This document shows, piece after piece, positions 10,383-63,124 of a stretch of DNA of 64,000 nucleotides. Every line of letters starts with the position of its first letter. Positions within the stretch are counted from its first letter, which is position 1. Made by a program: the position numbers and the translations under genes. The stretch is from NCBI GenBank assembly GCA_964640195.1, contig CAZXIC010000002.1, forward strand, positions 81,743-145,742, in the 5' to 3' direction. The notes beneath the pieces were generated by a model. It did no database searches. It saw only the letters and a program-made list of their open reading frames with translations, and was not told the DNA's origin. This DNA comes from an uncultured archaeon (GTDB lineage Archaea > Iainarchaeota > Iainarchaeia > Iainarchaeales > GCA-2688035).

Positions 10383-10419
10383 CTGGTTTGTTTTGCAAAC
10401 CCAGAATTATTTTATTTTT
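10383..10419 (+). terminator. Hairpin plus T-rich tract downstream of the glycosyltransferase pair
   Basis: CTGGTTTG-TTTT-CAAACC(C)AG stem-loop followed by 'attattttattttt'. Confidence 0.35.
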
Positions 10420-10439
10420 CAAAAGAGACAATATTAAGC

Positions 10440-10525
10440 GGTGTGGTTGGGAACGGTGAATCGTTAATCAGAAATGATTAACCGCGGGGATTCCTTGGAA
10501 TTCCGGTTCCCGTTTTTTCCACACC
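10440..10525 (+). ncRNA. Candidate structured RNA (three-way junction), unknown class
   Basis: Outer stems GGTGTGG/CCACACC and GGGAACGG/CCG(G)TTCCC enclose two hairpins: GTTAATCA-GAAA-TGATTAAC (10463-10482) and GGATTC-CTTG-GAATTC. Lies in a 370-bp intergenic gap. Strand not determined. Confidence 0.25.
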
Positions 10526-10681
10526 ATCTGCTTTAGGACGAAAGGCATCTATTAAACCCGAAAGAGCCTAAAAGACTTTGATTGCCCTTAAAGCATTTTT
10601 TTCTTCTAATTCCTTATTCTTCTTGCAGGGAGATTAGTTTTTTAAATAAGTTAACTGTTTATATTGTGAGGCTTGCGTGAA

Positions 10682-11380: not shown

Positions 11381-11382
11381 CT

Positions 11383-12021: not shown

Positions 12022-12023
12022 AA

Positions 12024-13322: not shown

Positions 13323-13451
13323 TAAAACTAATTGAAATAGGAATTTAAAGGAATTGCGATTGAAGTGCTGAAATAAAAAAATCAGCGGAAGGACACTCTT
13401 CCAAAAGGGCTTAAAAAATGTTGAGACAGGGTTCTTAGAGGCGCAGTTGAA

Positions 13452-14111
13452 ATGATTGACTTCAATGAAATGGTTTCAAGGGTGCTTGAGAGGGGAATGC
13501 GGCAGAAAAGCATCGGGAGATACTACCCAAGCGAGATAGGCAACTGCATTAGAAAGGTATGGTACAGCTACAAGTATCCGCAAAAAATTGACCCAGAGAA
13601 ATTGAAAATATTTGAGGTTGGGAACATAATGCACGGCTTTGTGGTTGAAGTGCTGAGGAGCGAAAAAAACAAGGAGGTTAAGCTGCTGCAAAGCGAATTT
13701 CCCTTGCAGATTAAGATGCCTGAATTCACTGTAAGCGGCAGGGTAGACGACCTTGTTTTGGTGAGGACAAGCGGAAAAACAATTGTCGTTGAAGTGAAGT
13801 CAACAAAGAGCATTGAGTTTGTTAAAGAGGCAAGCCAAGGCCATGTAATGCAACTGCAGCTGTACATGCACGCAACAGGAATCCACAACGGCATCGTGCT
13901 TTACATTGACAAGGGGAACCTGCAAAGCAAGCAGTTCCAAATAGAATATAGCGAAAAGCAGGTTAAAGGGATTATGCAAAGGTTTGGCAAGCTGCACAGG
14001 TTGCTTGAAAGCGACCTGCTGCCTGCAGCTGAAGCAAAGAAGGAAGAGGAAATGCGGTGGATGTGCAAGTACTGCGAGTACGCTGAAAAGTGCGAGAAAA
14101 ACGAGGGCTAA
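13452..14111 (+). CDS. Cas4-like PD-(D/E)XK nuclease with Fe-S cysteines (stand-alone)
   Basis: N-terminal Cys ('IGNCIRK'), the 'GRVDDLVLV...VVEVKSTK' D..E-x-K nuclease core, 'QLQLYMHA' and C-terminal 'CKYCEYAEKC' (CX2CX5C). Confidence 0.75.
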   Translation: MIDFNEMVSRVLERGMRQKSIGRYYPSEIGNCIRKVWYSYKYPQKIDPEKLKIFEVGNIMHGFVVEVLRSEKNKEVKLLQSEFPLQIKMPEFTVSGRVDDLVLVRTSGKTIVVEVKSTKSIEFVKEASQGHVMQLQLYMHATGIHNGIVLYIDKGNLQSKQFQIEYSEKQVKGIMQRFGKLHRLLESDLLPAAEAKKEEEMRWMCKYCEYAEKCEKNEG

Positions 14112-16765
14112 CCTGCCTTTTTCTTACCTTGCTTTTCCTTTATTGCTGCCTGCGCTGCAGCTAATCGCGCGATAGGAACCCTGTACGGGGAGCAGCTCAC
14201 ATCATTCAAGCCGATGCTGTGGCAGAACTCGACGCTCTTGGGTTCGCCGCCATGCTCCCCACATATTCCTATTTCAATGCGCTTGTTGGCTTTCCTTGCT
14301 TTTTCAACGCACAGCCGCATCAAGAGACCAACGCCGCCTTGGTCAATGCTCTGGAAAGGATCCCGCTCATAGATTCCCATTTCAACATAGTGCTTCAGGA
14401 ACTTTCCTGCATCATCCCTGCTGAAGCCGCAGGTCATCTGCGTTAAATCGTTTGTCCCAAAAGACATGAAATCTGCTTCCCTTGCAATCTCATCAGCTGT
14501 AAGCGCTGCCCTCGGAACCTCAACCATTGTCCCAATCTTGTAGCTGACTTTGCCCTCTGCGCCTGTTTCTTTTGCAACCCTGTGCACCAGCTGCTTTATC
14601 CTGAGGAACTCCTCAAGCTTTCCAACCAAAGGAACCTCTATTTCAGGCAAAGGTCTTTTGCCTGCCTTTCGTAGGGCAAGCGCGGCTTCAAAAATTGCCC
14701 TAACCTGCATTTCGTTTATTTCAGGATAAACCAGACCAAGCCTGCAGCCCCTGAAGCCAAGCATCGGGTTGAACTCGTGCAGCTCCTCAACCTTGGCTTT
14801 TAGCTTTTCCTTGCTGATGCTGATTTCCTGCGCAATAGCTGCGACCTCCTTGTCCTCCTTAGGCAGAAACTCGTGCAGGGGCGGGTCAAGCAGCCTTATC
14901 AAAACCGGCAGGCCGTCCATTACCTCAAACAAGCCCTTGAAGTCTCTCCTCTGGTAAGGCAGCAATTTTGCAAGCGCCTTCTTCCTGCCATCCAGGTTCT
15001 CGGCAAGAATCATCTCCCTGACCGCCTGGATTCTGTCGCCTTCAAAAAACATGTGCTCTGTTCTTGTAAGGCCGATTCCTTCCGCGCCAAAACCCCTGGC
15101 AACCTTTGCGTCCTTGGGGGTGTCTGCATTTGTCTTAATTTTTAGCTTCCTGAAAGAGTCTGCCCAAGTCATGAGCTTTGCAAAGTCGCCTTTCAGCTTG
15201 GGTTCAACCAGCGGAATCTTGCCCTGAAAAACCTCGCCTGTGCCTCCGTCCAGGGAAATCCAATCCATTTCCCTAAAAACAAGCCCCTGTTTTGTCCTCA
15301 TTTCACCTGCCTTTTCGTCAATTGAGATATCGCCAGCACCGGCAACACAGGGCGTTCCCATGCCCCTGGCAACCACAGCAGCATGGCTTGTGCTGCCGCC
15401 CCTTGCTGTAAGGATTCCCTGCGAGGCGTGCATTCCCTCAACATCCTCAGGGCTTGTCTCCAAGCGCACCAGAACGACCTTTTCGCCTGGATTGTCCTCT
15501 TTCATCTGCTTTGCCTTCTCTGCGGTGAAAACTACCTTTCCAACCGCAGCGCCAGGGCTTGCGTTGATGCCCTTTGCAATAACCTGGGCTTCCTTCACCG
15601 CAACCGGGTCAAGCTGCTTGTGCAGCATCTGGTCAAGCTGCTCTGGCTTGATTCTCAGGACTGCCTCCTCCTTTGAAATGAGCCCCTCGCCAACCATGTC
15701 AACGGCAATCTTCACCGCTGCATGAGCAGTCCTCTTTCCAGCCCTTGTCTGCAGGATGTAGAGCTTCCTGCCCTCAATCGTGAACTCAAAGTCCTGCAAA
15801 TCCCTGTAATGTCGCTCAAGCTTTTCGTAAACGCCAAGCAATTGCTTGTAGATGGCAGGCATTACTTCCTTTAAGCTGTCAATCGGCTTTGGTGTCCTGA
15901 TGCCTGCAACAACGTCTTCGCCCTGCGCGTTCAGCAGGAATTCGCCGTAGTGCTCCTTATCGCCGGTTGCGGGGTTTCTTGTGAAGCTGACGCCCGTGCC
16001 GCTTGTTTCACCCATGTTCCCGAAAACCATTGCCTGAACGTTAACCCCTGTTCCGGCATCGCTGCGCAGGTTATTTATTCTCCTGTAGGCAATTGCCCTT
16101 GGATTGTTCCAGCTGCTGAAAACCGCGTCAATTGACATTTTAAGCTGTTGCCAGGGCTGCTGCGGAAAGTCTTTGCCTGCCTCTTTCCGCACAAGCGCTT
16201 TATACTTCGGGATAAGTGCTTTCAAATCAGCGGAATCAAGCCCGGTGTCATACTTCACGCCCTTTGTTTCCTTTGCATTGTCAAGCAGTTCCTCAAATTT
16301 GGCGTGCTTTACGCCCATTACAACATCGCCAAACATTGTAATAAAGCGCCTGTAGCTGTCGTAGGCTGCCCTCTCGTTTTCTGTTTTTCGGGCAAACACC
16401 ACAACACTTTCATCGTTCATTCCAAGGTTCAGGACAGTGTCCATCATGCCGGGCATTGAAACATAGGAACCTGAGCGCACGCTCACAAATAGGGGATTTT
16501 GCTTGTCGCCAAGCCGTTTTCCCATCTTCTTCTCCAGAGCAGCCAGCTTTTGCCTGACCTGCTCTTGCAGGCCCTTGGGCCAGCGCCTTCCCTCCTTGTA
16601 GAAGAGGTTGCATGCTTCTGTTGTAATAGTGAATCCATGGGGAACGGGCAGACCTGACTCAGTCATTTCAGCAAGCTGCGCCCCCTTGTTCCCGAGCAGG
16701 AGAACCCATTTCGGGCTGTTTGCCTTCTTTACCTCATTGAACGAATAAACATACCTCTTGCTCAA
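14108..16765 (-). CDS. ppdK: Pyruvate, phosphate dikinase
   Basis: 'LLGNKGAQLAEM', phospho-His loop 'GGSTSHAAVVARGMG' and PEP-utiliser C-domain 'FMSFGTNDLTQMT'. Start revised to TTG 16765 after AGGTGA. The track start is 16825. Confidence 0.95.
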   Translation of the reverse strand: MSKRYVYSFNEVKKANSPKWVLLLGNKGAQLAEMTESGLPVPHGFTITTEACNLFYKEGRRWPKGLQEQVRQKLAALEKKMGKRLGDKQNPLFVSVRSGSYVSMPGMMDTVLNLGMNDESVVVFARKTENERAAYDSYRRFITMFGDVVMGVKHAKFEELLDNAKETKGVKYDTGLDSADLKALIPKYKALVRKEAGKDFPQQPWQQLKMSIDAVFSSWNNPRAIAYRRINNLRSDAGTGVNVQAMVFGNMGETSGTGVSFTRNPATGDKEHYGEFLLNAQGEDVVAGIRTPKPIDSLKEVMPAIYKQLLGVYEKLERHYRDLQDFEFTIEGRKLYILQTRAGKRTAHAAVKIAVDMVGEGLISKEEAVLRIKPEQLDQMLHKQLDPVAVKEAQVIAKGINASPGAAVGKVVFTAEKAKQMKEDNPGEKVVLVRLETSPEDVEGMHASQGILTARGGSTSHAAVVARGMGTPCVAGAGDISIDEKAGEMRTKQGLVFREMDWISLDGGTGEVFQGKIPLVEPKLKGDFAKLMTWADSFRKLKIKTNADTPKDAKVARGFGAEGIGLTRTEHMFFEGDRIQAVREMILAENLDGRKKALAKLLPYQRRDFKGLFEVMDGLPVLIRLLDPPLHEFLPKEDKEVAAIAQEISISKEKLKAKVEELHEFNPMLGFRGCRLGLVYPEINEMQVRAIFEAALALRKAGKRPLPEIEVPLVGKLEEFLRIKQLVHRVAKETGAEGKVSYKIGTMVEVPRAALTADEIAREADFMSFGTNDLTQMTCGFSRDDAGKFLKHYVEMGIYERDPFQSIDQGGVGLLMRLCVEKARKANKRIEIGICGEHGGEPKSVEFCHSIGLNDVSCSPYRVPIARLAAAQAAIKEKQGKKKAG

Positions 16766-36313: not shown

Positions 36314-39061
36314 TTACTGCAATTTCTTTTTCTCCAATTCAAGCAGATGGATTTTCTCCCTGTACTCGAAAAGCTTCTGCCTGAAATAGTCCTCTTTTAT
36401 TGTCTGCTTGCAGAACTCTGTTTCAAGGTTCTGCACCATATCCCTGAGCTTTGCGATTTCCGCATCAATTTCCTGCAGCCTGAGCCCTGCCTCAACGGGC
36501 TCAGCTGGCTTCCCTGGCTTGGCAAAAAGCCCCATCAGCTTGGCCGGCAGCATTGAAGCGCTGACTGCAGTTTTATGGGCAGCATACCTGGACTCAGAAG
36601 GCAGCCTTTTCCAGGCAAGGACATGCCTCTTCCTCTCAGTGCTTATTTCCGCAGCTGCCTTCCGCATCTCCTTCTCATGCATGGAAATCTGCTTCTCCAG
36701 TTCACGCCCCTGGGCCTTTCCCTTAACAACGGCTTTCTGCAGCTGCGCTTTCTTTTTCGCAATTGCAAGGCTGCCCCTCTTGTGTTCCAGGAAAAACAGC
36801 TTGTGCATTCTCTTAAGCATATACAAGGCAAACAGTATCACGACAAGCAGAACAAGCAGCAAGGCAATCAAGAAAATAGGCAGCGGCGCATAAACAGCGA
36901 AGGGAAAAGAGGTTGTGCCTTTGTTCCCCAATGAATCAATTGCGGTAATTACAAGCGCAGCTTCAGGCAGGTCTTTGTCGGAAAACACGTAATGCCCGGT
37001 GAAAACATTGCCGTCCTGCTGCAACGGGATGGAAACTCCGTTCAGGACAGCATTCACGTCAGCGCCTGGCACAGCAGCGTTGTTGGCGTAAACAAGCTGG
37101 AACTTAAACTCAAGCTTCTCGCTGACGGACACCTTAAGCTCCTTGGGTTGGAGGAGAACTGCCTTGATTGCCCCTGCATTAATGTCAAGCGTCAGCTCCT
37201 GCAGCCCTGCCAACTCGCCCTTTGCAGCAAAAAAGGAAAAGCTCTGCTTGCCGATGGGAAGGTCAACTGGCACAACATAGCTTCCGGTGTAAGAGCCGTT
37301 TCCGAGGTCCTGCAAATCAATTCCGTTTCCGTAAGCGTCTGTAAGGGAGATTGCTGCACCTTCAATAGGCTCTCCCTCAAGGTCTGTTACAAGCACGTTC
37401 AAGTCAATCGCCTGACCCCTTAAAACAGTGTTGAAGTCAGTGAGGAGCTCGATTGACAACTGCTGCTGCCCTGTATGGGTGCAGGCAGCAGAACAGGTGC
37501 CAGGAGAAAGGCATTCATCCAATGTTATCGGATTCTGGTCATCGCAGTCAGCAGTGCTGCTGCAGGCAATTGTGCAAGGTGTGTTTGAGCAAGAGGCTTC
37601 ACAAGTGCCAGCATTAAGGCACTTGTCGAGGGTCTGGGGGTCATCGTCAAAGCAGTCGCCGTCACCGCTACAGGCAACAGTGCAACCAACGTTGGCGCAA
37701 TACGAATCGCACTGCCCGGGAAAAAAGCAGTAATCACTGGTTGCCTCTATACCGTCATCACAGTCAGCATCAGCTGTGCAAGCAACAGTGCAAACAGTAT
37801 GCGTGCAGTTTGCATCGCAGGTTCCAGCATTATTACATACATCCACTGTCTCAGTGCTGTTGTCATCGCAGTCTGCGTTGCTGTAGCATGCGATTGCGCA
37901 AAGCGAGCTGCTGCAGTTTGCATCGCATGTGCCTGGGTTCAAACAAACATCGACAGTCATAGCGTTGCTATCATCGCAGTCGGCGTTGGCGTCGCATGCA
38001 ACAGTGCAGGCAATTGGCGTATTAGCGCAGTTTGCATCGCATGTGCCTGGGTTCAAACAGGTATCGGTTGTAAGGCTGTTGCTGTCATCGCAGGCAGAAT
38101 CAGAAGTGCATTCAATGGAACAGACAGTGTTGGAACAACTGGCAGAGCAGGTGCCTGGATTGAGGCAAACGTCAGTTGTAAGGGAATTGCTGTCATCGCA
38201 GGCAGCATTATTGTCACACGCGATATCGCACACAGTATGGGAGCAGTTTGCATCGCATGTGCCTGGGTTCAAACAGGTATCGGTTGTAAGGCTGTTGCTG
38301 TCATCGCAGGCAGAATCAGAAGTGCATTCAATGGAACAGACAGTGTTGGAACAACTGGCAGAGCAGGTGCCTGGATTGAGGCAAACGTCCACTGTTAAGC
38401 TATTGCCATCGTCACAGTCAGCGTTTGCATCGCATGCAATCATGCAGTAGCTGAATGTTACGTCTGCTGACGTGTCATCGTCATCGCCTGTTTCGCTGAT
38501 AAAGAAGTTGCCGCTGCCTGTTGCTGCATCGCTGCCTGTTGAAAGGACAAAATAAAAGCTTTCACTGCCGCCGCTTTTCTCAATTCTGCACTGGTCAACT
38601 GTTGGCAGGGCACACAATACGTCATTGCCGCTTAAAGAGGGTGTTCCAGCCTTATAGGTCGTATCATCCAAACAGCCGCAGTATGAAACAGTTGCATCTG
38701 AGCCTATTACATCATTTGCTGCATAAACGTTATGGAAATTGAATTGGTCTGGATAGCCGTGTTGAAACCAATCACTGTTTGAAATAGTCAGCTCAAAGCG
38801 GTAATCGGTACTTCTCAACAAATTGGTATCGCATGCTGCGCTTGCGCCAGTGACATCAATGCCTGTGCATACTGCTGTGCCACTCCCTATAACAGTGCTG
38901 CCGCTTTGAAAAACACCCAAAGAGTCAATTGAGTAATTTGGAGCAGGGGCAAGAAACAGGGAAAAAAAGCCAGCTGGCTGTCCTGGCGCAGAATACAGAA
39001 GCAGGAAAAGCGCTGCAATGGCAAGGGCAGCGGCTGCCAGGACTGCAATGCTTTTGTTCAT
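36314..39061 (-). CDS. Large type-I membrane surface protein with about 10 tandem Cys-rich repeats and a cytoplasmic coiled-coil tail
   Basis: N-terminal signal/TM. Repeats of C-x3-C-x5-C-DD-x8-C-x5-C-x3-C ('ACDDSNSLTTDxCLNPGTCxAxCS') followed by an Ig-like region. TM 'LPIFLIALLLVLLVVILFALYML' and a basic/coiled C-tail. Confidence 0.85.
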   Translation of the reverse strand: MNKSIAVLAAAALAIAALFLLLYSAPGQPAGFFSLFLAPAPNYSIDSLGVFQSGSTVIGSGTAVCTGIDVTGASAACDTNLLRSTDYRFELTISNSDWFQHGYPDQFNFHNVYAANDVIGSDATVSYCGCLDDTTYKAGTPSLSGNDVLCALPTVDQCRIEKSGGSESFYFVLSTGSDAATGSGNFFISETGDDDDTSADVTFSYCMIACDANADCDDGNSLTVDVCLNPGTCSASCSNTVCSIECTSDSACDDSNSLTTDTCLNPGTCDANCSHTVCDIACDNNAACDDSNSLTTDVCLNPGTCSASCSNTVCSIECTSDSACDDSNSLTTDTCLNPGTCDANCANTPIACTVACDANADCDDSNAMTVDVCLNPGTCDANCSSSLCAIACYSNADCDDNSTETVDVCNNAGTCDANCTHTVCTVACTADADCDDGIEATSDYCFFPGQCDSYCANVGCTVACSGDGDCFDDDPQTLDKCLNAGTCEASCSNTPCTIACSSTADCDDQNPITLDECLSPGTCSAACTHTGQQQLSIELLTDFNTVLRGQAIDLNVLVTDLEGEPIEGAAISLTDAYGNGIDLQDLGNGSYTGSYVVPVDLPIGKQSFSFFAAKGELAGLQELTLDINAGAIKAVLLQPKELKVSVSEKLEFKFQLVYANNAAVPGADVNAVLNGVSIPLQQDGNVFTGHYVFSDKDLPEAALVITAIDSLGNKGTTSFPFAVYAPLPIFLIALLLVLLVVILFALYMLKRMHKLFFLEHKRGSLAIAKKKAQLQKAVVKGKAQGRELEKQISMHEKEMRKAAAEISTERKRHVLAWKRLPSESRYAAHKTAVSASMLPAKLMGLFAKPGKPAEPVEAGLRLQEIDAEIAKLRDMVQNLETEFCKQTIKEDYFRQKLFEYREKIHLLELEKKKLQ
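38027..38389. repeat. Perfect 147-bp direct duplication at 216-bp spacing inside the Cys-rich-repeat gene
   Basis: 38027-38173 and 38243-38389 read identically. A 33-bp partial third copy starts at 37913. Confidence 0.9.
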
Positions 39062-39411: not shown

Positions 39412-39897
39412 GTGTTGTGCAAAGAACTGCTGGGAGAAGCAGAGCTAAGGAAAAAACTTCCAGCGCTGCTGAAAACCGGCGAGCTTATACCACTGTCGAA
39501 AGTCGCGCAAGACTTGGGCTTGACTACAAGGACACTTTCCAGAAGAAAGGACGTTAAAACTGTGAAGGTGGGGGGACGCGGAGCGGGAGAACGCAGTTTC
39601 ATGATAAAAACAGATGCCGCGGAATTTAAGCGAACATACCCCGAAACTAAAATTAGAAGGAAGAAGAGTGCAGCTGTAGTTGAGCAACAGCCAGCAGGCA
39701 AGGCAATGAAAATAAGAGCGACCAAGACAACAAAGACTGTGGGGAAAAAGGCGTGGCAATGGTTTAATGCACACCGCGAATTAGTATCGCCTGCCCACAG
39801 CGAGATGCTTGAAAAAATGGTGAGGCAATGCGAGAACCTACCGCTGGAGAGATGGGATAAGGTAGTTGGGTGGCTTGAAAGGGCTTTTTTCAGATGA
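39412..39897 (+). CDS. Putative helix-turn-helix DNA-binding protein
   Basis: 'LIPLSKVAQDLGLTTRTLSRR' is an HTH-like segment (excisionase/MerR style). Basic linker and helical C-part. Confidence 0.55.
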   Translation: MLCKELLGEAELRKKLPALLKTGELIPLSKVAQDLGLTTRTLSRRKDVKTVKVGGRGAGERSFMIKTDAAEFKRTYPETKIRRKKSAAVVEQQPAGKAMKIRATKTTKTVGKKAWQWFNAHRELVSPAHSEMLEKMVRQCENLPLERWDKVVGWLERAFFR

Positions 39898-39947
39898 CCA
39901 GACCGGGCCAAAGAAACTGTTACTAAAATATCTTTTAACAGCCAAGA

Positions 39948-39979
39948 ATTGTTATGTAGCTAGAATGCTACATAATAAT
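39948..39979. repeat. 32-bp near-perfect palindrome: 13-bp inverted arms with a 6-bp spacer (recombinase-core-like)
   Basis: ATTGTTATGTAGC-TAGAAT-GCTACATAATAAT. Arms match 12/13. Lies in a convergent intergenic gap. The arm sequence recurs as half-sites downstream. Confidence 0.6.
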
Positions 39980-39981
39980 AC

Positions 39982-40185
39982 CTATATTAACCCTAACTTC
40001 TTAGCCTTTGGCAACAGCCTCATAACTTGCCTTAATTCATTTAAAAGGGCCTTTTCATCTACAGCGTTTGCAGCAAAGAGTTGTGGTTCTCGTGCTTGCT
40101 CACGTGTTAAAATGCTGAGAAGCTTGTAGGCATCAACTCTTATTTCAGCGAGGCTTCTTCCGACACCATTTTTCCACAAAAACAC
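39982..40185 (-). CDS. Small hypothetical ORF
   Basis: 67 aa. Overlaps the upstream small ORF by 46 nt in another frame, so a frameshifted single gene is possible. Confidence 0.3.
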   Translation of the reverse strand: MFLWKNGVGRSLAEIRVDAYKLLSILTREQAREPQLFAANAVDEKALLNELRQVMRLLPKAKKLGLI

Positions 40186-40349
40186 CTCAATTTGCGCTTA
40201 TCAGGCCTGCCCAAAACTTCTGCCCTGCCCAGCGCCGTAACAGCATTGGCGACTGTTTTAATATCCCTAGCCAAAACGAGTTCTCTGCCCCGTCTTGCAC
40301 GGGTCTTGTTCCGCTTTGCGGCTGAGGTTAGAGTCGCCCTTGCAGCCAT
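40140..40349 (-). CDS. Small basic hypothetical ORF
   Basis: 69 aa from the internal ATG ('MAARATLTSAAKRNKTRARRGRE...'). AT-rich TATA-like stretch about 25 nt upstream. Confidence 0.3.
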   Translation of the reverse strand: MAARATLTSAAKRNKTRARRGRELVLARDIKTVANAVTALGRAEVLGRPDKRKLRCFCGKMVSEEASLK

Positions 40350-40729
40350 TGTAAAATATTTTAGGGCATTCCAAAATAAAAACCCGCCCAAAATGGGCTT
40401 TACTTATACATAACTTATATCCCGCCCTGCCCCTGCGCCGCTCCCTTTCAAGCCACCCCTATTCCGCTATTCAATTTTTCCAGTGCGTTTTTCACATTTT
40501 TTTCAAAATTTCCGAAGGAATTTTACAGTATAATGTAGAATATGTTGTATCCTGTATGCTGTTTTTAGCCACCTCCAGAAGGCGGAAATGGCTTAAAAGC
40601 GTGAAATCAGGCCTCCTGCACTAAAATAGCTGGTTTGACCTGGCTCAACTTTGTCTGGGATGGCTTTAAATTTGAGGGAGCTGCAGAACTTGCAGCAGGG
40701 AGCGCAGGGCCCGCACGGGACGCCTTATA

Positions 40730-40749
40730 GTTATGTAGAAGTTATGGGG
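40730..40749 (+). repeat. Left copy of the cassette-flanking direct repeat
   Basis: GTTATGTAGAAGTTatGGGG. 18/20 identical to 44282-44301. Contains the TAA stop (40742-40744, minus strand) of the TcmP-like gene. Confidence 0.7.
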
Positions 40750-41674
40750 CGAACAGTTTTTTCTGCGTTCCATCAACTACACTAAATCCAGTTTCAATCA
40801 TTTTACAGGTTGTTCTTTCTACCTTCTTTTTTGTATAAATAACCGCTTTGAGCCAGGGGTTCCTTCCCTTTGTTCGTCTTGTAGCAAATATGAGGTCGTA
40901 GAAAAAACTTCCTTCATCACTTTTAATTCTAATGTAGAAACACACATCACGGCCGCTTTTCTTTATGTTAGAAATATATAAATTACACAAATCATCTCTA
41001 TTTAGACCGCCCTCCTTAATCTTCTTAACCTCAACTCCAAAAAACTTTGCGAGTTTTGAATGGGGGATGTCACATTGGGCTGCTTTAATAGCCCTAGCAG
41101 CCCCACATGATTGAAAATTAATAATTAGGTCGCCTGATTTATTCAATAATTTCTGAATCGTTACCCATTCAACTTCCATGTTTTCACAATCAATGAAAGC
41201 AAGGTAGTGGCTATTTTCAGGCATTTCTTCTAGGATTTCATCGATGGCCTGGTTACAATCCTTATGAATTATTTTATAATTTATTTTTGAATAAGCAGGC
41301 AACTTTTTAAGATAACTAATTCTTTTCTCCAAAGCGCCTAATGATTTAGAATTGGTATCTACGAAGAACATTTTTGTGAAGGGTTTGTGAGTGTACAGTG
41401 TGGCTATTAAAGCAGAACCTAAAATGACCTGCTCTTTAACTTTGCACACTCCTGAATCAGCCAATAAATCAATATAATAAAAAGCCCCCCACCTTTTTGG
41501 GATTATCGCACTATAAACTGTTGATAAATAAGATTTTAAAAAAATTAATTTTTTAACCGGCCAGTAGCCATTTTTCTCATAATAGACGCTCTTGCCAAAC
41601 GGCAATAGATTTGCTAAAAGGGAGGGTTTAAGACTAAAAAGCTGTTTCTCAAGCCAAGGTTGTTTGATAGCCAT
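40742..41674 (-). CDS. TcmP-like protein (three-Cys-motif partner family, methyltransferase-like core). Tentative.
   Basis: N-terminal 'WPVKKLIFLKSYLSTVYSAI...FYYIDLLADSGV' resembles the TcmP pattern (K-L-x-L-x-YL ... YID-FAG-G) as I recall it. About 36% GC. Starts 1 nt after the upstream rSAM stop. Confidence 0.55.
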   Translation of the reverse strand: MAIKQPWLEKQLFSLKPSLLANLLPFGKSVYYEKNGYWPVKKLIFLKSYLSTVYSAIIPKRWGAFYYIDLLADSGVCKVKEQVILGSALIATLYTHKPFTKMFFVDTNSKSLGALEKRISYLKKLPAYSKINYKIIHKDCNQAIDEILEEMPENSHYLAFIDCENMEVEWVTIQKLLNKSGDLIINFQSCGAARAIKAAQCDIPHSKLAKFFGVEVKKIKEGGLNRDDLCNLYISNIKKSGRDVCFYIRIKSDEGSFFYDLIFATRRTKGRNPWLKAVIYTKKKVERTTCKMIETGFSVVDGTQKKLFAP

Positions 41675-41675
41675 A

Positions 41676-42641
41676 TCAAATCAGGCAATTACACCTTATT
41701 TTCCTATAATCCATTCCCAGTTCTTCCCACATCTCAACTGTTTCCTTGCAAAGCGCCAGTTTTCTGTATCCAAAGTTGGCTTTTAAGTAGTCCCTAACAA
41801 ATGAATACATTTCTCGTCGCGTGTTGAAGTCTATTTTCTTGCCCCAGTTTGATTTTTCGTTGAGGTATTTTACCCAGCTCTTGTCAGGGCAGCATCTAAT
41901 CGTTGAAGCTAGCCCCCTCAACGACCCGATTGTTATCCTTTCTGGCGTGTAACTATTAAACAGTTTGTCAAGCAACTTACTGTACTCTTTTTTCCAGTTC
42001 TCAATCGGTACCATAGGGTCAACTCTAACTCTTACAACATAGCTCCTCTCATGCAGTTTTTTTCCTGCCTCAATTCTATCAAATGGCGAGGGCGCTTTCT
42101 CCCATCTTTTTGAAACTTCTGGCGCATTTAAACTAAAGCTAACCACCGTCTGGTTATGCTCTTCCATCCCAAGGAGGTTCTTTACGTTAGTAGATTTCGT
42201 GCAAAGAAGCACTTTGTGTTTCCTCTGTTTTTCAAACATCGGCATGATAAACTGCGAAAAAGGTCGTTCCAGATGTTCGGTCATTAGCGAATCGGCAAGC
42301 TCGCCTGAGTTAAGCAGCTCGTTGGAAACCCCGTCATTTTGCAAAAAATAATTTACGTGGTTTGCAATTTTTTCATGGTCCTTTGGCACTGGTGCGGTCT
42401 TTGTTTTGACCATGCGCAGGGTGCCTTTTAAGAAACACCAAGAACAGTTGAAAGGGCAGCCATAGCCCCACTTCAGCTCAAGGAAGTGAGGGCATACAAC
42501 ATCTTGCGCATATTTTGGGATGGGCGTCTTATCAAAACGGGTAATTATTGAGCCATCCTTCACCCGCTCAACTAGGATTTTGGTGCTACCATCCAACAGC
42601 TCGTACTCTTTGTATTTAACAGCCGAGCCCATGTGCAGCAC
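41676..42641 (-). CDS. Radical SAM protein, spore-photoproduct-lyase-like (SplB/COG1533-type)
   Basis: 'VVCPHFLELKWGYGCPFNCSWCFLKG' gives CxxxCxxC plus the upstream Cys typical of the SPL family. About 40% GC. Confidence 0.75.
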   Translation of the reverse strand: MLHMGSAVKYKEYELLDGSTKILVERVKDGSIITRFDKTPIPKYAQDVVCPHFLELKWGYGCPFNCSWCFLKGTLRMVKTKTAPVPKDHEKIANHVNYFLQNDGVSNELLNSGELADSLMTEHLERPFSQFIMPMFEKQRKHKVLLCTKSTNVKNLLGMEEHNQTVVSFSLNAPEVSKRWEKAPSPFDRIEAGKKLHERSYVVRVRVDPMVPIENWKKEYSKLLDKLFNSYTPERITIGSLRGLASTIRCCPDKSWVKYLNEKSNWGKKIDFNTRREMYSFVRDYLKANFGYRKLALCKETVEMWEELGMDYRKIRCNCLI

Positions 42642-42795
42642 TGCTATAATTACAATCTGTTAATATTTAAAATAGGTAGAAAGAGTGGACTTCCGGTGAA
42701 TACTCATTTACAGGCTGCCGATATTAGCCTGCTAACCAGACGGCTCTTGCAGAATCCCTACTTATAAAAATAACATTCCAGATAGATACTATGGC

Positions 42796-44223
42796 ATGGC
42801 AAAGCGGATTTTGTTTGTGAATGGCCCTTCGCAGGACACCTGCGACAGGTTTTTTGGGTGGCCCACCCCATTGCTTTATGCGATAGCGCCAAGCGTTGAT
42901 GCAATCAAGAATGATGAGCTTGATTTGGAGTACGTGCCCAAAATATTTGACCCGATATGGTACGCTGAGGGAAAAAATGATGGCAGAGTAAAGAAGGAAT
43001 TCCTCAGGCAGTTGAACGGCGTTGATGTCGTTTGCGCCAGCTCAACGTATGATTCGCTTTACCCCACAATGCAGTTGTTGGCCGAAGCCAAAAGGGAAGA
43101 CCCGAACATAAGGATTGTTCTGGGCGGGCCGCATTTTGACGAAGTGCACAGCCTTGCTGGATTCAATGATGTGGAAAAGTCTCCTGAACTGGTTGACTTT
43201 GGCGTTGCAGGCGATGGGGAATTTGCATTGAAGGCTCTTCTGGAAGCAATCGCGGCAGATAGCTTGGAGAAGCTTGATTTGTCTTCAGTTCCGGGAAAAG
43301 CTTGGGTGTATTCCAAAAAGGGCGTGCAACCCACCAGCGGGAAGCCCCTTGATTTGAACAGGCTGCCTTTCATGCCCATTGAGCTTGCTGATGTTGAGAG
43401 GCACAAGCACGATTTTGACATTTTCACTGATAGCAGCGGAATACTGCCGACCTTCCAGATGGTTGCTGCCAGGGGATGCACGTATTCTTGCGATTTCTGC
43501 TCTGAAAGAAGACAACTTGCGTACCCTAATGCAAGGTCTGTTGAAAATGTCATTGAGGAAGTCCTATTGCGTAAAGAGCAGGGATTCAAGGCGATTTTCT
43601 TTGACGACAGCACCTTCGGCTTGTACCCGGAGCTGATGGAACTGTTAAAAGAGCTGGGCAAGACAGGCATGGTTTTCGGGAGCCTGAACCGCTTTAACCA
43701 CTTGGACAGGCAGGAAACAGTGGGAGCCTACAAGGATGCTGGCTTTGCCTACCTCTACTGTGCAATCGAGCAGTTCGATGACAGGGCTCTGGCAAAAATG
43801 AGGAAAGGGCAGGGAACGAAAAAAATCGCGGAATCAATGAAACTGTTGTCCAAAAACCAGTTTACTGTCGGGGTTTCCCTGCTTTACGGGCTGCCCTACG
43901 AAACCGGCAATTCAATAAAGGCAACTCTGGACTTTACAGAGGAATGGGTAAATAAGGGAACAGTAAGATTGGTGAGCGAGTCAGTGCTCTCTTTCCATCC
44001 TGCAACCCCTGCCGGAAAAAGCCTCAGGCAGGGCTTCAACCGCACTCCGCCGAACCAGGGCTTTCCCTTCAACAGGTTTGAGGAAGGCCAGTGGTATCAT
44101 CCAGAACACGTGACAGCAGAATACCTGGAAAAAATACTGAAGATGTCCGAGGAGAAATTCAGCAAGGCGATGGTGAGAAACAGGCACTCGTGGTACGCTG
44201 CACAAGGGTTAATTGTGGAGTGA
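42796..44223 (+). CDS. B12-binding-domain radical SAM protein (class B)
   Basis: N-terminal Rossmann-like cobalamin-domain pattern ('ILFVN', 'VVCASSTY', 'IVLGGPHF'), then 'AARGCTYSCDFCSE' (CxxxCxxC). Confidence 0.85.
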   Translation: MAKRILFVNGPSQDTCDRFFGWPTPLLYAIAPSVDAIKNDELDLEYVPKIFDPIWYAEGKNDGRVKKEFLRQLNGVDVVCASSTYDSLYPTMQLLAEAKREDPNIRIVLGGPHFDEVHSLAGFNDVEKSPELVDFGVAGDGEFALKALLEAIAADSLEKLDLSSVPGKAWVYSKKGVQPTSGKPLDLNRLPFMPIELADVERHKHDFDIFTDSSGILPTFQMVAARGCTYSCDFCSERRQLAYPNARSVENVIEEVLLRKEQGFKAIFFDDSTFGLYPELMELLKELGKTGMVFGSLNRFNHLDRQETVGAYKDAGFAYLYCAIEQFDDRALAKMRKGQGTKKIAESMKLLSKNQFTVGVSLLYGLPYETGNSIKATLDFTEEWVNKGTVRLVSESVLSFHPATPAGKSLRQGFNRTPPNQGFPFNRFEEGQWYHPEHVTAEYLEKILKMSEEKFSKAMVRNRHSWYAAQGLIVE

Positions 44224-44281
44224 TGGGTGGTTCAGGGAGCAATAAAAACAGCGCTTCTTTGTGGGGTTGGCACAGAGATTT

Positions 44282-44301
44282 GTTATGTAGAAGTTTGGGG
44301 G
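44282..44301 (+). repeat. Right copy of the cassette-flanking direct repeat
   Basis: GTTATGTAGAAGTTtgGGGG, 58 nt after the B12-rSAM stop. Confidence 0.7.
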
Positions 44302-44384
44302 GACGGAACCAAACTACCCCGCCTCTTTTATTTTATTTAAATTAATAAACATCCCTTGGTATTGGAATTTTCTCCCCATTTTAG

Positions 44385-45086
44385 TTACGTTTCTTTGTAA
44401 CTCGAACTCGTCAAGATTGGGTTGTCCACCAATTTGAAGAGAAGCTTATCTATCCTATCTGTTGTGCTCTTATCCGATAAAAACCTTACGAGAACGAGGG
44501 GTGTACCTTTTGCAACACGGTCGATTATGCCTTTTTGAATGTGTGTATCAGACATGGCAGTTTGGATCATGAAGCAAAACTGCCGATAATTAATTACAAA
44601 TTTATCAAAAAGGCGATTGAAAGTTAGCTCCTGTTGTGCTGGATCGCCTGTTAGTTTATCCAGATAACTCATTATTATGCCAATGTCTCCTGTGCCCACC
44701 ATATCGACAATGTTTATGCCTTTATCCTTATACTTTTTGTGTACTTCTCTTCGACGTTCTTCAGCATCGTTATGCAAGTTGTTTTCATTTAGCCACCTTA
44801 TCTGCTCTGCAATCCTCAGGATGGCGATATATTCCTGATTGACCAGTATGGACTTAAGCCTACGGAGGGTAGAGCTGGACATATCAATGGTAAAAAGCTC
44901 AGCATTAGTAGATGCCGTATCTAAACTAACTTGCTTTGTTTTGAAAAAATTTCGGACAGCCTTTTTTAATTTTGTCTTGAGTTCTTTGGGGATCAATTTC
45001 CAAACGATAAGAATTCGCTTTAAATTTGCGATGGTAATTCCATTCGTAAGTATTGCTTTAATCTCTTCCGAAAGAGGATCTACCAT
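44385..45086 (-). CDS. Hypothetical protein (AT-rich island)
   Basis: 233 aa at about 38% GC. No motif recognised. Lies downstream of a 59-aa ORF on the same strand. Confidence 0.6.
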   Translation of the reverse strand: MVDPLSEEIKAILTNGITIANLKRILIVWKLIPKELKTKLKKAVRNFFKTKQVSLDTASTNAELFTIDMSSSTLRRLKSILVNQEYIAILRIAEQIRWLNENNLHNDAEERRREVHKKYKDKGINIVDMVGTGDIGIIMSYLDKLTGDPAQQELTFNRLFDKFVINYRQFCFMIQTAMSDTHIQKGIIDRVAKGTPLVLVRFLSDKSTTDRIDKLLFKLVDNPILTSSSYKET

Positions 45087-48968: not shown

Positions 48969-49368
48969 TTATCTCCTTTAGAACTCTTTTACTTTCTTCT
49001 TTGGAACCTTATTTGTTTATCTTTGGCAGCACGATGAACGCGAACAGTGCGGTTGCTGCTGCAAAACCCCAGAAAATCAACGGGTTGATGTAGGCAGTCA
49101 GGGAAAGAAGTAAGGCTGAAACAAGTGCAGCTATGAGAAAAACTACCAGAATTTTGAGGGCTTTTTGGTTCATGGGGGGCAATTGAATTATGCTGAAAAC
49201 TGTTATAAAACAAGCCAGGAGAGTTTTTTGCCCTTTCCCTTGAAAGGGCGCCTGCCCGGGAATTGGCGCTGTCTTTTCCCTGCGCCAAGGCATAGCTTTC
49301 GCTGGACCGTGCAATAAAAATAAAAAAATAGAAATAGTTTTGAAGAATTCCAAACTGATTGCCTAGAA

Positions 49369-49521
49369 TTAATAGTCTCTTCTTGGTTTCCTGTGTTTCA
49401 TATAGCAGTCTTTGCAGTAAACAGGTCTTGTTCCGTCGGGCTTGAAGGGAACTTCTGTTTCCTTGCCGCAATCGGCACAAGTGACCTTGTGCATTGCCCT
49501 GCCATATTGATCTTCAGCCAT
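49369..49521 (-). CDS. CxxC-x17-CxxC zinc-ribbon mini-protein (50 aa, absent from the ORF track)
   Basis: 'MAEDQYGRAMHKVTCADCGKETEVPFKPDGTRPVYCKDCYMKHRKPRRDY'. GGTGAA RBS-like sequence upstream. A paralog lies at 57731-57901. Confidence 0.8.
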   Translation of the reverse strand: MAEDQYGRAMHKVTCADCGKETEVPFKPDGTRPVYCKDCYMKHRKPRRDY

Positions 49522-57541: not shown

Positions 57542-57730
57542 ATTTGCCCCATAGTTTATTCACCTTATATGGGTATTTAAGGGTTATTATTGCAGGGTTG
57601 GGAACACAAGGCTCTGTTATGTATAATTTTGGTGTTTGCCTTTTTGCCTGCGGCAGCGATTAGCCTAACAGAAAATAAAAATAAAAAATTAGAAACTGTT
57701 TTGTACGGAACTTCAACTAATTGCTTAGAA

Positions 57731-57901
57731 TTAGTAGTCTCTTCTTCCACCGAAGCCGCTTCTAGGTTTCCTGTGCTTCATGTAGCACTCTCGGCAGTAA
57801 ACCGGCCTGCTCCCGTCTGGCTTGAAAGGAACTTCAGTCTCTTGACCGCACTCAGAACAGGTTACCTTGAACAGTTGCCTGCCGAACTTATCTTCACCCA
57901 T
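57731..57901 (-). CDS. CxxC-x17-CxxC zinc-ribbon mini-protein (56 aa, absent from the ORF track)
   Basis: 'MGEDKFGRQLFKVTCSECGQETEVPFKPDGSRPVYCRECYMKHRKPRSGFGGRRDY'. The flanks are also similar to the 49369-49521 copy. Confidence 0.8.
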   Translation of the reverse strand: MGEDKFGRQLFKVTCSECGQETEVPFKPDGSRPVYCRECYMKHRKPRSGFGGRRDY

Positions 57902-61020: not shown

Positions 61021-61147
61021 TTTTTAGTACCTCCAAACGGTGAAAGGAAAAAAGTAGTATTTAAAGCTATCTTTTTAAGGTTCTGGGGGGGTGGGGGCAA
61101 CAATTCGCATTGCCCCCAAAAAAAACACGCTTGTAGTTATGTATAAG

Positions 61148-61294
61148 TTATGCTTTGTTTTTCTTTCTGTTTGCCCCAAAATTTGCGTACTTCCTATACT
61201 TCTGCATAGTCCATGCTGGGGGCTGCTTTTTCCTCAGCTTGAATTCCTCTTCAAGCAAGCGCGTTCTCAGCACTTCATCTACACCCATATCCAT
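61148..61294 (-). CDS. Small basic hypothetical ORF (48 aa, absent from the ORF track)
   Basis: ATG follows AAGGTGGAG. 'MDMGVDEVLRTRLLEEEFKLRKKQPPAWTMQKYRKYANFGANRKKNKA'. The stop abuts motif copy 61136-61147. Confidence 0.3.
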   Translation of the reverse strand: MDMGVDEVLRTRLLEEEFKLRKKQPPAWTMQKYRKYANFGANRKKNKA

Positions 61295-61383
61295 AACTCC
61301 ACCTTCTTTGCCTTGCTTCTCAAAACACCATAGAAAAGTAGCGGATTGTAATATTCTTATACATTAAACCCTTTAAAAATATA

Positions 61384-61632
61384 TTGTATTTATTAGTTAC
61401 CGCCATGCAGCAAATAAGAGAAATGTTCGCAAAAGGCTGCTTTTTCTTCATTGTCGGCGTTGTGCTCGCAACGCTGTTTGTTTGGGGCATGGTCCAGGGC
61501 ATACTCTCCCACCTTGGGGGCGAAGATTTCACCCTACTCTACTACTTTACCTCATGGCTGGCGGGGGTTGGCGCACTTACACTCTACCACCAAGCCAGGT
61601 CAATCCTGCACTATGCGCAGATATCGAAGTGA
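61384..61632 (+). CDS. Small membrane protein
   Basis: 82 aa with two hydrophobic helices. An internal ATG start is possible. Confidence 0.4.
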   Translation: MYLLVTAMQQIREMFAKGCFFFIVGVVLATLFVWGMVQGILSHLGGEDFTLLYYFTSWLAGVGALTLYHQARSILHYAQISK

Positions 61633-61821
61633 GCAAATCTGCTTTGGTTTTTTAAAACGGCAAACACTACGGCAAACAGGCAGCAATGCCCAGTGCCAAT
61701 CTTCTTAAAAACAACAAACAGCCGCTGCCTGCCAACAGCAAGGCCCAATACCATGCGGCTTAAACAGCGCAACCTTGCTGTCCGCGGATACTAAAAAGAT
61801 AGAAGTAGATTCTATGCCTGC

Positions 61822-62025
61822 CTAATCCCCTGCCTTCTTTGTTTTGTGGGATTTTTTAAACCCTTCCGTTTCCTCCCATTCCTCTATGTCCCCTTTATCC
61901 AATCCAAGCTTTGACAAATAATCCTCATGCTCCTTTGCATCCAGCTTGTTGAACCATTCACGCCAAGCCTTGTCTTCAGGTTTATCTATTTTGCCCCCAG
62001 GCACGGGCTTCAATCTCCTAGCCAT
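61822..62025 (-). CDS. Small charged hypothetical protein
   Basis: 67 aa, K/E/D-rich and Trp-containing ('KAWREWFNKL'). Confidence 0.45.
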   Translation of the reverse strand: MARRLKPVPGGKIDKPEDKAWREWFNKLDAKEHEDYLSKLGLDKGDIEEWEETEGFKKSHKTKKAGD

Positions 62026-62215
62026 GCCAAACCAAAAAGCGTGATACCAAAAATCATTAAAAATGCTACCCTGGGAAGAAAAAAATTAAAATCTTTTCTG
62101 TTCCGCTCTAAGCCATGCAACTGATTTGGCACCACACAGAAAAAGGGGGGAATGCTAACGCCTGCCTTAGGAAAAAAATAAAAGGGGGTAGGGCAATTAA
62201 CTTACAGGTTGGGTT

Positions 62216-63124
62216 ATGCTGCAAAACGGAGCAGGCGCCGGTGTTGAAAAAACAAAAGAGGAAACAATAAAGGGTGGCAGCCCTGCCAACAGCGAACCCG
62301 ATGACTGGCTGCGCAGATTCAAGCAGGAGCTGATTGTAAGCGGCTACAGTGTAAGGACGCAAAAAATGTACTGCTATTACCTGCGGCAGTTCCTGCGCTC
62401 AGAGCAAAGGCCGGTTGCAGACATTGAGAGGGGTGACATAATAAGGTTCCTCGCAGAGAAAAAAGAGAAGGGAAATGCGAGCAACGCCACACTTGCACTG
62501 GCACATGCAGCATTGCGTTTCTTCTTCCACAACATATTGCATAAGAAAATTGTGGACGAAATTAAAACCCCGAAAAAAGCGAAAAAGCTGCCGGTTGTTC
62601 TGACACGGCAGGAGGTCAAGGCACTGATAACCGCGGCTAAGCCAAAAAGAAACCGGCTGATTGTGCAATTCCTGTACAGCACTGGCTGCAGGGTAAGCGA
62701 ATCTGTAAAACTACAGACCATGGACCTCAATTTAAAGGAGAGAACTGGTTTAATAAAAGGCGGCAAAGGAAACAAGGACAGGACAATCATACTGTCAAAG
62801 GAATGGATAAAAGCGGCAAAGAAATATCTGGCGAGAAAGAAAGCAAAAACCCCCTTTGTTTTCAGCAAAAAAAACGGCAAACCAATTTCTGCAGACACTG
62901 TACAGAGGATAGTCAGGGGGGCTGCAAAAAAAGCAGGCATCCAAAAAGAGGTGACGCCGCACACGCTTAGGCACAGCTATGCCACCCACCTGCTCGAGGC
63001 AGGGGAAAATATTAGAAAAATACAAGAATTGCTTGGCCATTCAAACCTCAACACAACACAAATATACACCCAGATTTCGCTGCAGGAGTTGAAAAAAGTC
63101 CAAAGCCCCTTGGATAAACTCTGA
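62216..63124 (+). CDS. xerA: Tyrosine recombinase, XerA/XerCD-like
   Basis: N-terminal SAM-like core-binding domain, 'GCRVSE' (catalytic Arg region), 'HTLRHSYATHLLEAGENIRKIQELLGHSNLNTTQIYTQ' (R-H-x-x-R..H..Y). Confidence 0.9.
   Translation: MLQNGAGAGVEKTKEETIKGGSPANSEPDDWLRRFKQELIVSGYSVRTQKMYCYYLRQFLRSEQRPVADIERGDIIRFLAEKKEKGNASNATLALAHAALRFFFHNILHKKIVDEIKTPKKAKKLPVVLTRQEVKALITAAKPKRNRLIVQFLYSTGCRVSESVKLQTMDLNLKERTGLIKGGKGNKDRTIILSKEWIKAAKKYLARKKAKTPFVFSKKNGKPISADTVQRIVRGAAKKAGIQKEVTPHTLRHSYATHLLEAGENIRKIQELLGHSNLNTTQIYTQISLQELKKVQSPLDKL

Follow-up and report, generated by a model that had tools for sequence, protein, structure and literature searches.

Proteins of the TcmP family take their name from a neighbouring three-Cys-motif protein, and TcmP with its three-Cys partners is widespread, known from annotation and listed among unvalidated candidates for phage defence. 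Here, we describe a form of this arrangement in a 64,000-nucleotide stretch from an uncultured archaeon of the Iainarchaeota (contig CAZXIC010000002.1, positions 81,743 to 145,742; hereafter, the window), in which TcmP is paired with a radical S-adenosylmethionine (SAM) enzyme of the spore photoproduct lyase (SPL) fold. These two genes form a module that works as one unit. While the TcmP/three-Cys pair itself was already known, albeit uncharacterised, the SPL-type partner in place of DUF5131, the fusions of the two proteins and their embedding in restriction-modification (R-M) operons are new. For comparison, related loci were fetched (80 metagenome, three IMG/VR and five GTDB loci, plus several contigs retrieved by exact protein look-up), their six-frame open reading frames (ORFs) were scanned with hidden Markov models (HMMs) built from the hits, and the flanking ORFs were clustered and then annotated. 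This gave 81 non-redundant loci, 70 of them informative; labels such as L001 denote the fetched loci, L001 being the window's own sequence.

The TcmP/DUF5131 module (PF07505, 'phage Gp37/Gp68') shares with the window pair a bona fide TcmP joined to a CxxxCxxC protein, as well as mobility and an association with defence islands. The partner in the window is, however, a 321-amino-acid (aa) radical-SAM enzyme of the SPL family (PF20903) without a PF07505 match, and in this SPL-type version, fusion and placement within R-M operons are frequent. RadicalSAM.org places DUF5131 (Megacluster-5-2) next to SPL (Megacluster-5-3) (PMC9477430). An hhalign comparison of the window radical-SAM profile with a DUF5131 sequence returned no similarity, so that homology between the two types of TcmP partner rests solely on that clustering. 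The pairing behind the TcmP name, which a first-pass annotation made from the window's letters had proposed with some uncertainty, was verified on the Rhodococcus plasmid NZ_CP069241 (L104, 3409-11062), where TcmP adjoins a 'phage Gp37/Gp68 family protein' that matches PF07505/DUF5131 with 345 bits; two TcmP genes and the DUF5131 gene stand there beside a zeta toxin, with DUF3375 and DUF4194 genes ~2 kb off. On the Halopiger xanaduensis SH-6 plasmid NC_015667 (L105, 2329-6119), a TcmP protein with a winged helix-turn-helix (wHTH) domain adjoins two other radical-SAM genes. Both plasmids come from cultured organisms with complete genomes, which are thus possible experimental hosts.

In PADLOC, the component A models of two candidate systems, PDC-M41 and PDC-M30, were matched by TcmP proteins, while the SPL-like partner matched no PADLOC model. 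Both candidates are two-gene systems that are not known to include a separate nuclease component. Specifically, short TcmP forms correspond to PDC-M41A (68 bits for the window protein) and long or fused forms to PDC-M30A (139-201 bits), and the radical-SAM proteins of the window and L005 were without a PADLOC match at E<=0.01 or 0.001.

Spore photoproduct lyase (SplB; TIGR04070, PDB 4FHC) is the best match of the radical-SAM protein in both sequence and fold, shares its CxxxCxxC core in a partial TIM barrel, and provides a precedent for action on DNA. The window enzyme differs from it in being only 15-17% identical, in its extra N-terminal beta-hairpin domain and four extra Cys, and in having an obligatory methyltransferase-fold partner, and its hosts are non-sporulating archaea and bacteria. 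The best functional analogy is with gp53 of phage M6, an SPL-like radical-SAM isomerase that acts on polymeric DNA in thymidine hypermodification (Lee et al. 2021, PMC8989533). Both are SPL-fold radical-SAM enzymes, and gp53 installs a base modification, is virus-borne and has an anti-restriction role, the likeness being judged by fold and function. Unlike the pair, gp53 works with a 5-hydroxymethyldeoxyuridine kinase, an aGPT-Pplase and a pyridoxal-phosphate decarboxylase, none of which is present here, and has no TcmP partner. Finally, the radical SAM mobile pair proteins A and B (TIGR04471/TIGR04470), which are SPL-related radical-SAM pairs on mobile elements, defined without a TcmP, resemble one form of the module in that it, too, has two SPL-like paralogues side by side. 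The match to these models was nevertheless marginal (~19 bits versus 410 for pair protein B) and confined to some fusions.

Sequence, fold and architecture of the pair

The pair lies on the minus strand of the window and is separated by a short spacer from a divergent gene for a second, B12-binding-type radical-SAM protein:

40742..41674, minus strand: TcmP, short form lacking the wHTH domain; 310-aa ORF, assigned by TIGR04474, PDC-M41A and its AlphaFold fold
41676..42641, minus strand: SPL-fold radical-SAM enzyme of a distinct conserved subfamily; 321-aa ORF, assigned by Pfam SPL, TIGR04070 and Foldseek
42642..42795, no strand: AT-rich divergent spacer of 154 bp (37% GC), with the pair on one side and the B12-type gene on the other

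Coordinates and sequence verified that the radical-SAM stop precedes the TcmP start by 1 nt and that the divergent spacer measures 154 bp; the latter presumably holds promoters for both directions. The description of the pair as a translationally tight unit of foreign-looking composition held up as well, given this 1-nt gap and a low GC content (35.5% for TcmP, 43.7% for the radical-SAM gene and 39.6% for the pair, versus 47.7% for the window and 49.6% for the B12-type gene). In a GC scan, no 1.9-kb stretch of the window was poorer in GC than the one that contains the pair (minimum 39.3% at 40501; z = -2.8 for the pair).

The 310-aa protein is TcmP, as the first-pass annotation had suggested, matching TIGR04474 with 96.4 bits (cutoff 53) over model positions 2-259 of 263, and its profile aligned to the canonical Rhodococcus TcmP with 96% probability. 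Its AlphaFold model (mean predicted local distance difference test, pLDDT, 92) has a class I SAM-methyltransferase fold. The DLLADSG segment read earlier as motif I was confirmed at residues 69-75; across the family, motif I is conserved as D-L-L/F-A-G/D-S-G and a motif-IV-like element as F-[IV]-D-[CP]-x-G, for which the window protein has FIDCEN. Motif I, which binds SAM, looks intact, and motif II is acidic. Both proteins of the pair are basic, with isoelectric points (pI) of 9.45 for TcmP and 9.22 for the radical-SAM enzyme.

The SPL-like nature of the 321-aa protein was likewise corroborated, with a Pfam SPL (PF20903) score of 60 bits against a cutoff of 27 and SPL as the best fold in the PDB (4fhc/4rh0; template-modelling (TM) scores of 0.57-0.59 at 15-17% identity in Foldseek), followed by lipoyl synthase. 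Its cysteine pattern had been given as C-x12-CxxxCxxC; the CxxxCxxC part was found as described, while the preceding spacing is C-x11. A probable ATG start at 42632 would yield a 318-aa form. Thirty relatives from several phyla and both prokaryotic domains were 56-81% identical, with 94 invariant columns and seven invariant Cys, namely the cluster C62-x3-C66-x2-C69 plus C50, C298, C317 and C319. The family is small yet phylogenetically broad: a search of 1.84 billion representatives gave 240 clusters at 50% identity that reach E<=1e-30. A scan of GTDB genomes with the single protein, using narrow peptide patterns, yielded at least three close loci. When 50,697 phage records were searched by tblastn with the window protein, nothing was returned, and a plasmid collection yielded only true SPL-family genes, at 24-28% identity.

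We rejected identity with SPL itself. The equivalog level was missed by a wide margin (72.1 bits against 400 for TIGR04070 and 36.2 against 437.6 for TIGR03886), four further Cys are invariant, and in an HMM alignment to 4FHG, on whose correctness the residue equivalences depend, the SPL hydrogen-donor Cys140 (Geobacillus thermodenitrificans numbering; Cys141 in Bacillus subtilis) aligned with the invariant Glu114. Of the SPL relay residues, Tyr96 aligned with the invariant Trp68 and Tyr98 with a Phe or Tyr at position 70. These same data bear on the possibility that the unit is a DNA repair lyase, in which the radical-SAM enzyme would reverse a specific lesion (for example, a methylene-bridged or alkylated base arising from methylases or from competitors' toxins) that TcmP recognises. 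SPL being the closest family by sequence and fold speaks for such an activity, as do the methylases that adjoin the pair elsewhere, the Vsr repair endonuclease in L108 and, weakly, an endonuclease III gene 16 kb away in the window. Nevertheless, we regard it as quite improbable, considering the low SPL equivalog score, the Glu and Trp at the two SPL positions, the obligatory methyltransferase-fold partner and the four extra Cys without an SPL counterpart, as well as a linkage to salvage of SAM by-products (described below), which suggests that SAM is consumed and not regenerated. Speculatively, the four extra Cys might hold an auxiliary Fe-S or Zn site, or might serve as methyl-carrier or resolving thiols; by analogy, the former would follow the logic of lipoyl synthase and MiaB for an auxiliary cluster, and the latter that of RlmN and Cfr.

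Conservation of the two genes as neighbours had been proposed beforehand as a check on the pair, and it was found in archaea, bacteria and viruses alike: TcmP was fused to the radical-SAM enzyme or within 2.5 kb of it in 68 of the 70 informative loci, with 33 being fusions. Four architectures were observed. In the first, that of the window, L002, L101, L103, L106 and L107, the radical-SAM gene precedes TcmP; in the second, TcmP precedes a separate radical-SAM gene; and the third is a single ORF of 630-720 aa with the order TcmP-wHTH-rSAM, where rSAM denotes the radical-SAM domain. These fusions matched TIGR04474 with 126-214 bits, matched SPL too, and have as their linker PF22560, a GMT-like wHTH domain. 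The fourth is a triad of the radical-SAM gene, a second SPL-like paralogue and a convergent gene for a long TcmP. That TcmP and the radical-SAM enzyme have been fused repeatedly argues strongly for joint action of the two proteins. Moreover, the closest relatives of the window pair (72-81% aa identity for the radical-SAM enzyme and 74-75% for TcmP) sit in unrelated contexts, and the module spreads horizontally across archaea, bacteria and viruses.

Genomic company and proposed function of the module

Outside the window, the module recurs in the following surroundings:

L043 1875-8295, L045 3983-9495, L072 1350-8060 and L076 1446-6632: type III R-M operon in the order Mod-fusion-Res, with gaps of a few to ~30 nt
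L042 108-4823: fusion followed by Res (type III)
L029, L030, L037, L048 and L069: fusion directly beside Eco57I/type IIG-like methylases (840-1140 aa; REase_MTase_IIG, 193 bits)
L050 and L081: other N4/N6 methylases, that of L081 judged by eye
L101: Dam-type methylase and AlbA_2 protein adjoining the closest relative of the window pair
L108: C5-methylase (Dcm) and Vsr beside a close split-form relative
L002: defence-island-like surroundings (SLFN-type helicase, PD-(D/E)XK, NYN and Fic)
L093 (IMG/VR UViG_3300031463_000021) 2294-16121: triad on the contig of a head-tailed virus, with scaffold and major head proteins and a weak portal-like match
11 loci of one lineage (L055 3528-7589, L078 3782-7835, L070 1199-4614, L080, L079 and six others): tight co-directional operon of an IF-2B/MtnA-like isomerase, the module and a PNP/MTAP-like phosphorylase

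In the type III operons, Mod is 572-630 aa long where intact, the fusion 705-718 aa and Res 848-850 aa, with annotation scores of 373 bits for MTase_III and 58 bits for REase_III; we found no description in the literature of a TcmP-wHTH-rSAM fusion between mod and res. The fusion gene itself occupies 3621-5738 in L043 and 4783-6942 in L037. RadC is often encoded upstream in the Eco57I/type IIG-like loci, and the viral triad is ~3.5 kb from two DNA methyltransferase genes. The nucleic-acid modification or self/non-self role that had been suggested for the window genes fits these recurrent R-M operons, the defence islands and the virus. Because the module is fused and is embedded in R-M operons and a virus, the pair probably acts on DNA. 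The reading we favour, with moderate confidence, is that it is a mobile, SAM-consuming enzyme that modifies DNA and is linked to self/non-self systems.

Under this reading, a unit with two SAM sites, i.e. a methyltransferase fold and a radical-SAM core that are often joined by a wHTH domain, would bind DNA as its substrate. The radical-SAM enzyme would cleave SAM to give a 5'-deoxyadenosyl radical, which would abstract a hydrogen from a flipped-out base, or base adduct, of duplex DNA, by analogy with SPL and with gp53 of phage M6. TcmP would take up a second SAM, probably as the donor of a methyl (or other SAM-derived) group, and would supply target recognition, aided in the long forms by the wHTH domain. 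The product would be a covalent DNA mark that is read by restriction functions or protects from them, shielding the host in R-M-like systems and countering restriction where a virus carries it. The faster evolution of TcmP (27-37% identity outside three close relatives, as opposed to 56-81% for the radical-SAM enzyme) fits a specificity component coupled to a constrained catalytic engine.

We also put forward, tentatively and with more doubt than belief, that the unit installs a previously unknown radical-SAM-dependent mark on DNA bases, for example by C-methylation or methylthiolation via a methyl-Cys or auxiliary cluster, that serves as the self label, or as an additional layer, in R-M-type immunity of archaea and bacteria and as an anti-restriction mark in their viruses; if true, no radical-SAM enzyme would have been a 'modification subunit' in an R-M system before. 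Together, the fusions and the R-M and viral contexts give TcmP and its three-Cys partners a first concrete functional setting, that of radical chemistry on DNA in self/non-self systems. If this is confirmed, DNA epigenetics and defence biology would gain a new class of enzyme, there would be a second case, after phage M6 gp53, of SPL-like enzymes that build DNA modifications instead of repairing DNA, and new reagents for DNA modification would become available.

The same company could also be that of a defence effector or guard, in which TcmP (with the wHTH domain) senses foreign or unmodified DNA, or the loss of the partner R-M activity, and the radical-SAM enzyme damages nucleic acid by radical strand scission or cross-linking, or depletes SAM. 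A comparable backup toxin is PrrC, which is embedded in type I R-M loci. TcmP proteins do match the PADLOC defence candidates PDC-M30 and PDC-M41, the fusion sits within Mod/Res operons that already own a methylase, and a defence island and DUF3375 and DUF4194 genes are among the neighbours. We nonetheless consider an effector rather unlikely: a virus carries the module beside viral DNA methyltransferases, which is better explained by protective modification; one lineage keeps it stably in an operon with genes for salvage of SAM by-products; the SAM-binding motif of TcmP looks intact and is accompanied by an acidic motif II; and the window contains no arrangement resembling a toxin with its antitoxin.

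The lineage in question is that of the 11 operons with IF-2B/MtnA-like and PNP/MTAP-like genes, where the module co-diverges with the isomerase and phosphorylase. This arrangement suggests coupling to the removal of 5'-deoxyadenosine or methylthioadenosine (MTA), and hence a stoichiometric use of SAM. It is also among the observations in favour of a housekeeping or metabolic pair that modifies tRNA or rRNA, or else a nucleoside or small molecule, with the adjacency to R-M genes reflecting shared accessory mobility. Three further observations point the same way and weigh against DNA as the substrate. Specifically, the nearest solved folds of TcmP are the RNA and small-molecule methyltransferases RlmJ/DUF519 (23S rRNA m6A) and CmoA (TM ~0.5), with small O-methyltransferases as further structural neighbours and 11-14% identity to the nearest structures; the radical-SAM enzyme is extremely conserved across domains, far better than TcmP, which could equally mean a conserved substrate other than DNA; and the surroundings are of a housekeeping kind in L005 (IF-2/aIF5B) and L106 (a wyosine-synthesis radical-SAM gene). 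An RNA or small-molecule substrate is, however, clearly unlikely in our view, as the distribution of the family is patchy (the 240 clusters mentioned above), the pair has a low GC content in the window, the module occurs on a virus, the nearest fold of the radical-SAM enzyme is that of the DNA enzyme SPL, and in at least four independent loci the wHTH fusion is inserted between Mod and Res, a few to ~30 nt from each neighbour.

Other points, too, count against a DNA-modifying enzyme. In its motif IV, TcmP has neither of the signatures, DPPY or PC, that mark known DNA amino- and C5-methyltransferases, systems of types III and IIG own a methylase, which leaves the need for a second mark unexplained, and a literature search returned no biochemical or genetic study of TcmP, DUF5131 or this radical-SAM subfamily. 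Additionally, no methylase or nuclease was detected within ~10 kb of the window pair, and no recognisable defence gene adjoins it. Membership of an R-M operon, defined as being co-directional with and close to Mod/Res or a IIG methylase, was thus a property of the homologous fusions and not of the window pair, which is an unfused short version that stands by itself where an archaeal chromosome is variable and low in GC. The window itself is the more modest result, in that it offers a single free-standing copy of the module from a variable region of this uncultured archaeon.

The B12-type neighbour and the dispersed repeat

The first-pass annotation had joined the pair to the gene across the spacer in a three-gene cassette bracketed by an 18/20 direct repeat. 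As with the two ORFs of the pair, this third ORF was found as it had been drawn:

42796..44223, plus strand: B12-binding-domain radical-SAM host gene, outside the system; 475-aa ORF, judged by the contexts of its orthologues

The protein resembles class B radical-SAM methyltransferases (TokK, PhpK and HpnR) in having a Radical_SAM core (74.9 bits, over the Pfam cutoff) and a weak N-terminal B12-binding-like domain (24.4 bits, under the cutoff of 32.1), with TokK as its best sequence match in the PDB. It differs from them in reaching no equivalog, the best NCBIfam match being PhpK at 68 bits versus 600 and the cutoffs for these families ranging from 250 to 750, and in that its gene is not linked to the module. 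Among the loci that carry the pair, only the window and L001, the window's own sequence, have it as a neighbour, and it is absent from all of the ~80 others. Orthologues with 45-75% identity were present in contigs of DPANN-like archaea and Candidate Phyla Radiation (CPR) bacteria that have only this gene in common with the window; in L097 and L099, they were located among SRP54, eIF2-alpha, ribosomal proteins, DNA polymerase B and Dus. In both of the latter (6941-9443), the gene is divergent from one for a 320-aa 2xHTH_24/AsnC-type protein, and no TcmP or SPL-like gene is present. In the window, the TcmP/radical-SAM pair stands where this regulator stands in L097 and L099, and the regulator is missing. 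In keeping with the caveat attached at first to the B12-type gene, that it has host-like GC and might differ from the pair in origin, its GC is 49.6% and its orthologues occur without the pair. The gene is an unrelated host gene of an uncharacterised orthologous family, outside the pair's system.

The repeat also proved to be real in part. Its two 20-mers, GTTATGTAGAAGTTATGGGG at 40730 and GTTATGTAGAAGTTTGGGGG at 44282, are present and agree at 18 of 20 positions, while their role as a unique bracket or insertion boundary did not stand. The left copy extends into the TcmP stop codon and so does not lie wholly beyond the gene. The 12-nt core, GTTATGTAKAAG, had nine matches in the window at up to one mismatch against 0.22 expected, five being exact; seven were intergenic, all in the variable 40-64 kb half. 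The following copies were recorded:

40403, minus strand: core motif
40730..40749, plus strand: dispersed-motif copy GTTATGTAKAAG(TT), overlapping the TcmP stop codon; no att site
44282..44301, plus strand: dispersed-motif copy, 59 nt after the stop of the B12-type gene; no att site
52104, plus strand: core motif
57616, plus strand: core motif inside a marginal ORF
61136, plus strand: core motif
63263, plus strand: core motif
L101 7031-7042 and 8682-8693, both minus strand: core motif in another genome
L103 2843-2854, minus strand, and 3934, plus strand: core motif

The 20-mer GTTATGTAGAAGTTTGGGGG recurs identically at L101 8674-8693, in another genome and beside the Dam-type methylase gene, and the motif at L103 2843-2854 directly follows the TcmP stop, an arrangement that is the same as in the window. 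Copies are often placed right after stop codons: one is 1 nt from the stop of an unrelated 258-aa gene, and that at 44282..44301 is 83-84 nt beyond the stop of a convergent 233-aa gene. Pairs of the motif flank accessory genes, namely xerA in the window, the Dam methylase in L101 and a LAGLIDADG gene in L103. Furthermore, the window has 39 direct 18/20 pairs of any sequence, where first-order Markov simulations gave ~6, and no recombinase was detected inside or beside 40.7-44.3 kb, the sole one in the window being XerA at 62216-63124. The outcome that had been named in advance as speaking against an insertion mark, a common intergenic motif, is hence what we found, and the att-site reading was rejected because the motif is dispersed (also in L101 and L103), 18/20 pairs are common in the window and no recombinase lies in or beside the bracket. 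Possible roles of the motif are those of a terminator, a regulatory element or a site for recombination.

A repeat-bracketed mobile cassette in which the B12-type enzyme cooperates with TcmP and the SPL-like enzyme would accord with the divergent adjacency of its gene over a shared 154-bp spacer and with the 18/20 repeat at both ends. It is very improbable, however, in view of the absence of the B12-type gene from ~80 other pair loci, its orthologues without the pair in housekeeping contexts, its host-like GC and acidic product (pI 5.57), the dispersal of the repeat core and the lack of an integrase or transposase inside or beside the bracket. As the B12-type gene is outside the module and the repeat marks no boundary, the earlier argument for a modifying function from the methylation chemistry of B12-dependent radical-SAM enzymes drops out.

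As two motif copies flank a tyrosine recombinase gene (62216-63124, plus strand), an attC/integron reading was considered. The recombinase passed the archaeal XerA model (267 bits versus 220) and failed the integron-integrase model (217 versus 265), and at 52104 only 29 nt are available, too short for an attC, which speaks against this reading. Upstream of xerA is a 1.2-kb apparently non-coding stretch (61021-62215). L101 and the window also share a PEMT gene ~6-9 kb from the pair, in a region that has been rearranged.

Other features of the window

The window is archaeal chromosomal DNA, as seen from an archaeal-type D-aminoacyl-tRNA deacylase, mevalonate-pathway genes, PPDK, PFK and XerA. 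Scans of its whole length for tRNAs and Rfam families were empty, and the spacer at 44224-44384 had no RNA structure (z = +0.6).

An ~840-bp non-coding stretch next to the pair (39898-40741) hosts inverted-repeat features. A perfect 16-nt inverted repeat, GGGTGGCTTGAAAGGG / CCCTTTCAAGCCACCC, is found near the pair at 39868-39883 and 40443-40458, with its arms 559 nt apart, and a second, imperfect one of ~20 nt involves the motif copies at 40403 and 40730. No further copies of either were found in the window or the fetched loci. They may be remnants resembling miniature inverted-repeat transposable elements (MITEs).

Downstream of the B12-type gene, the convergent 233-aa ORF (44385-45086, minus strand; 38.6% GC) has a weak PADLOC CARF/HEPN match (19 bits, E = 1e-4) and an RRREVH (Rx4H-like) motif, and it may be a HEPN-type accessory gene near the pair's neighbourhood. 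On the other side, a 915-aa protein (36314-39061, minus strand) has a signal/transmembrane-like N-terminus, no Pfam match and ~12 tandem Cys-rich repeats of ~36 aa (CDDSNSLTTDVCLNPGTCxAxCSxT...); its gene is the source of most of the short DNA repeats at 37.8-38.3 kb. Finally, a diverged duplication of ~150-190 bp, with four collinear 18/20 matches, links 49312-49450 and 57673-57830. It covers the 3' parts of two small minus-strand ORFs and the A-rich spacers downstream of them, and these ORFs are probably paralogous genes.

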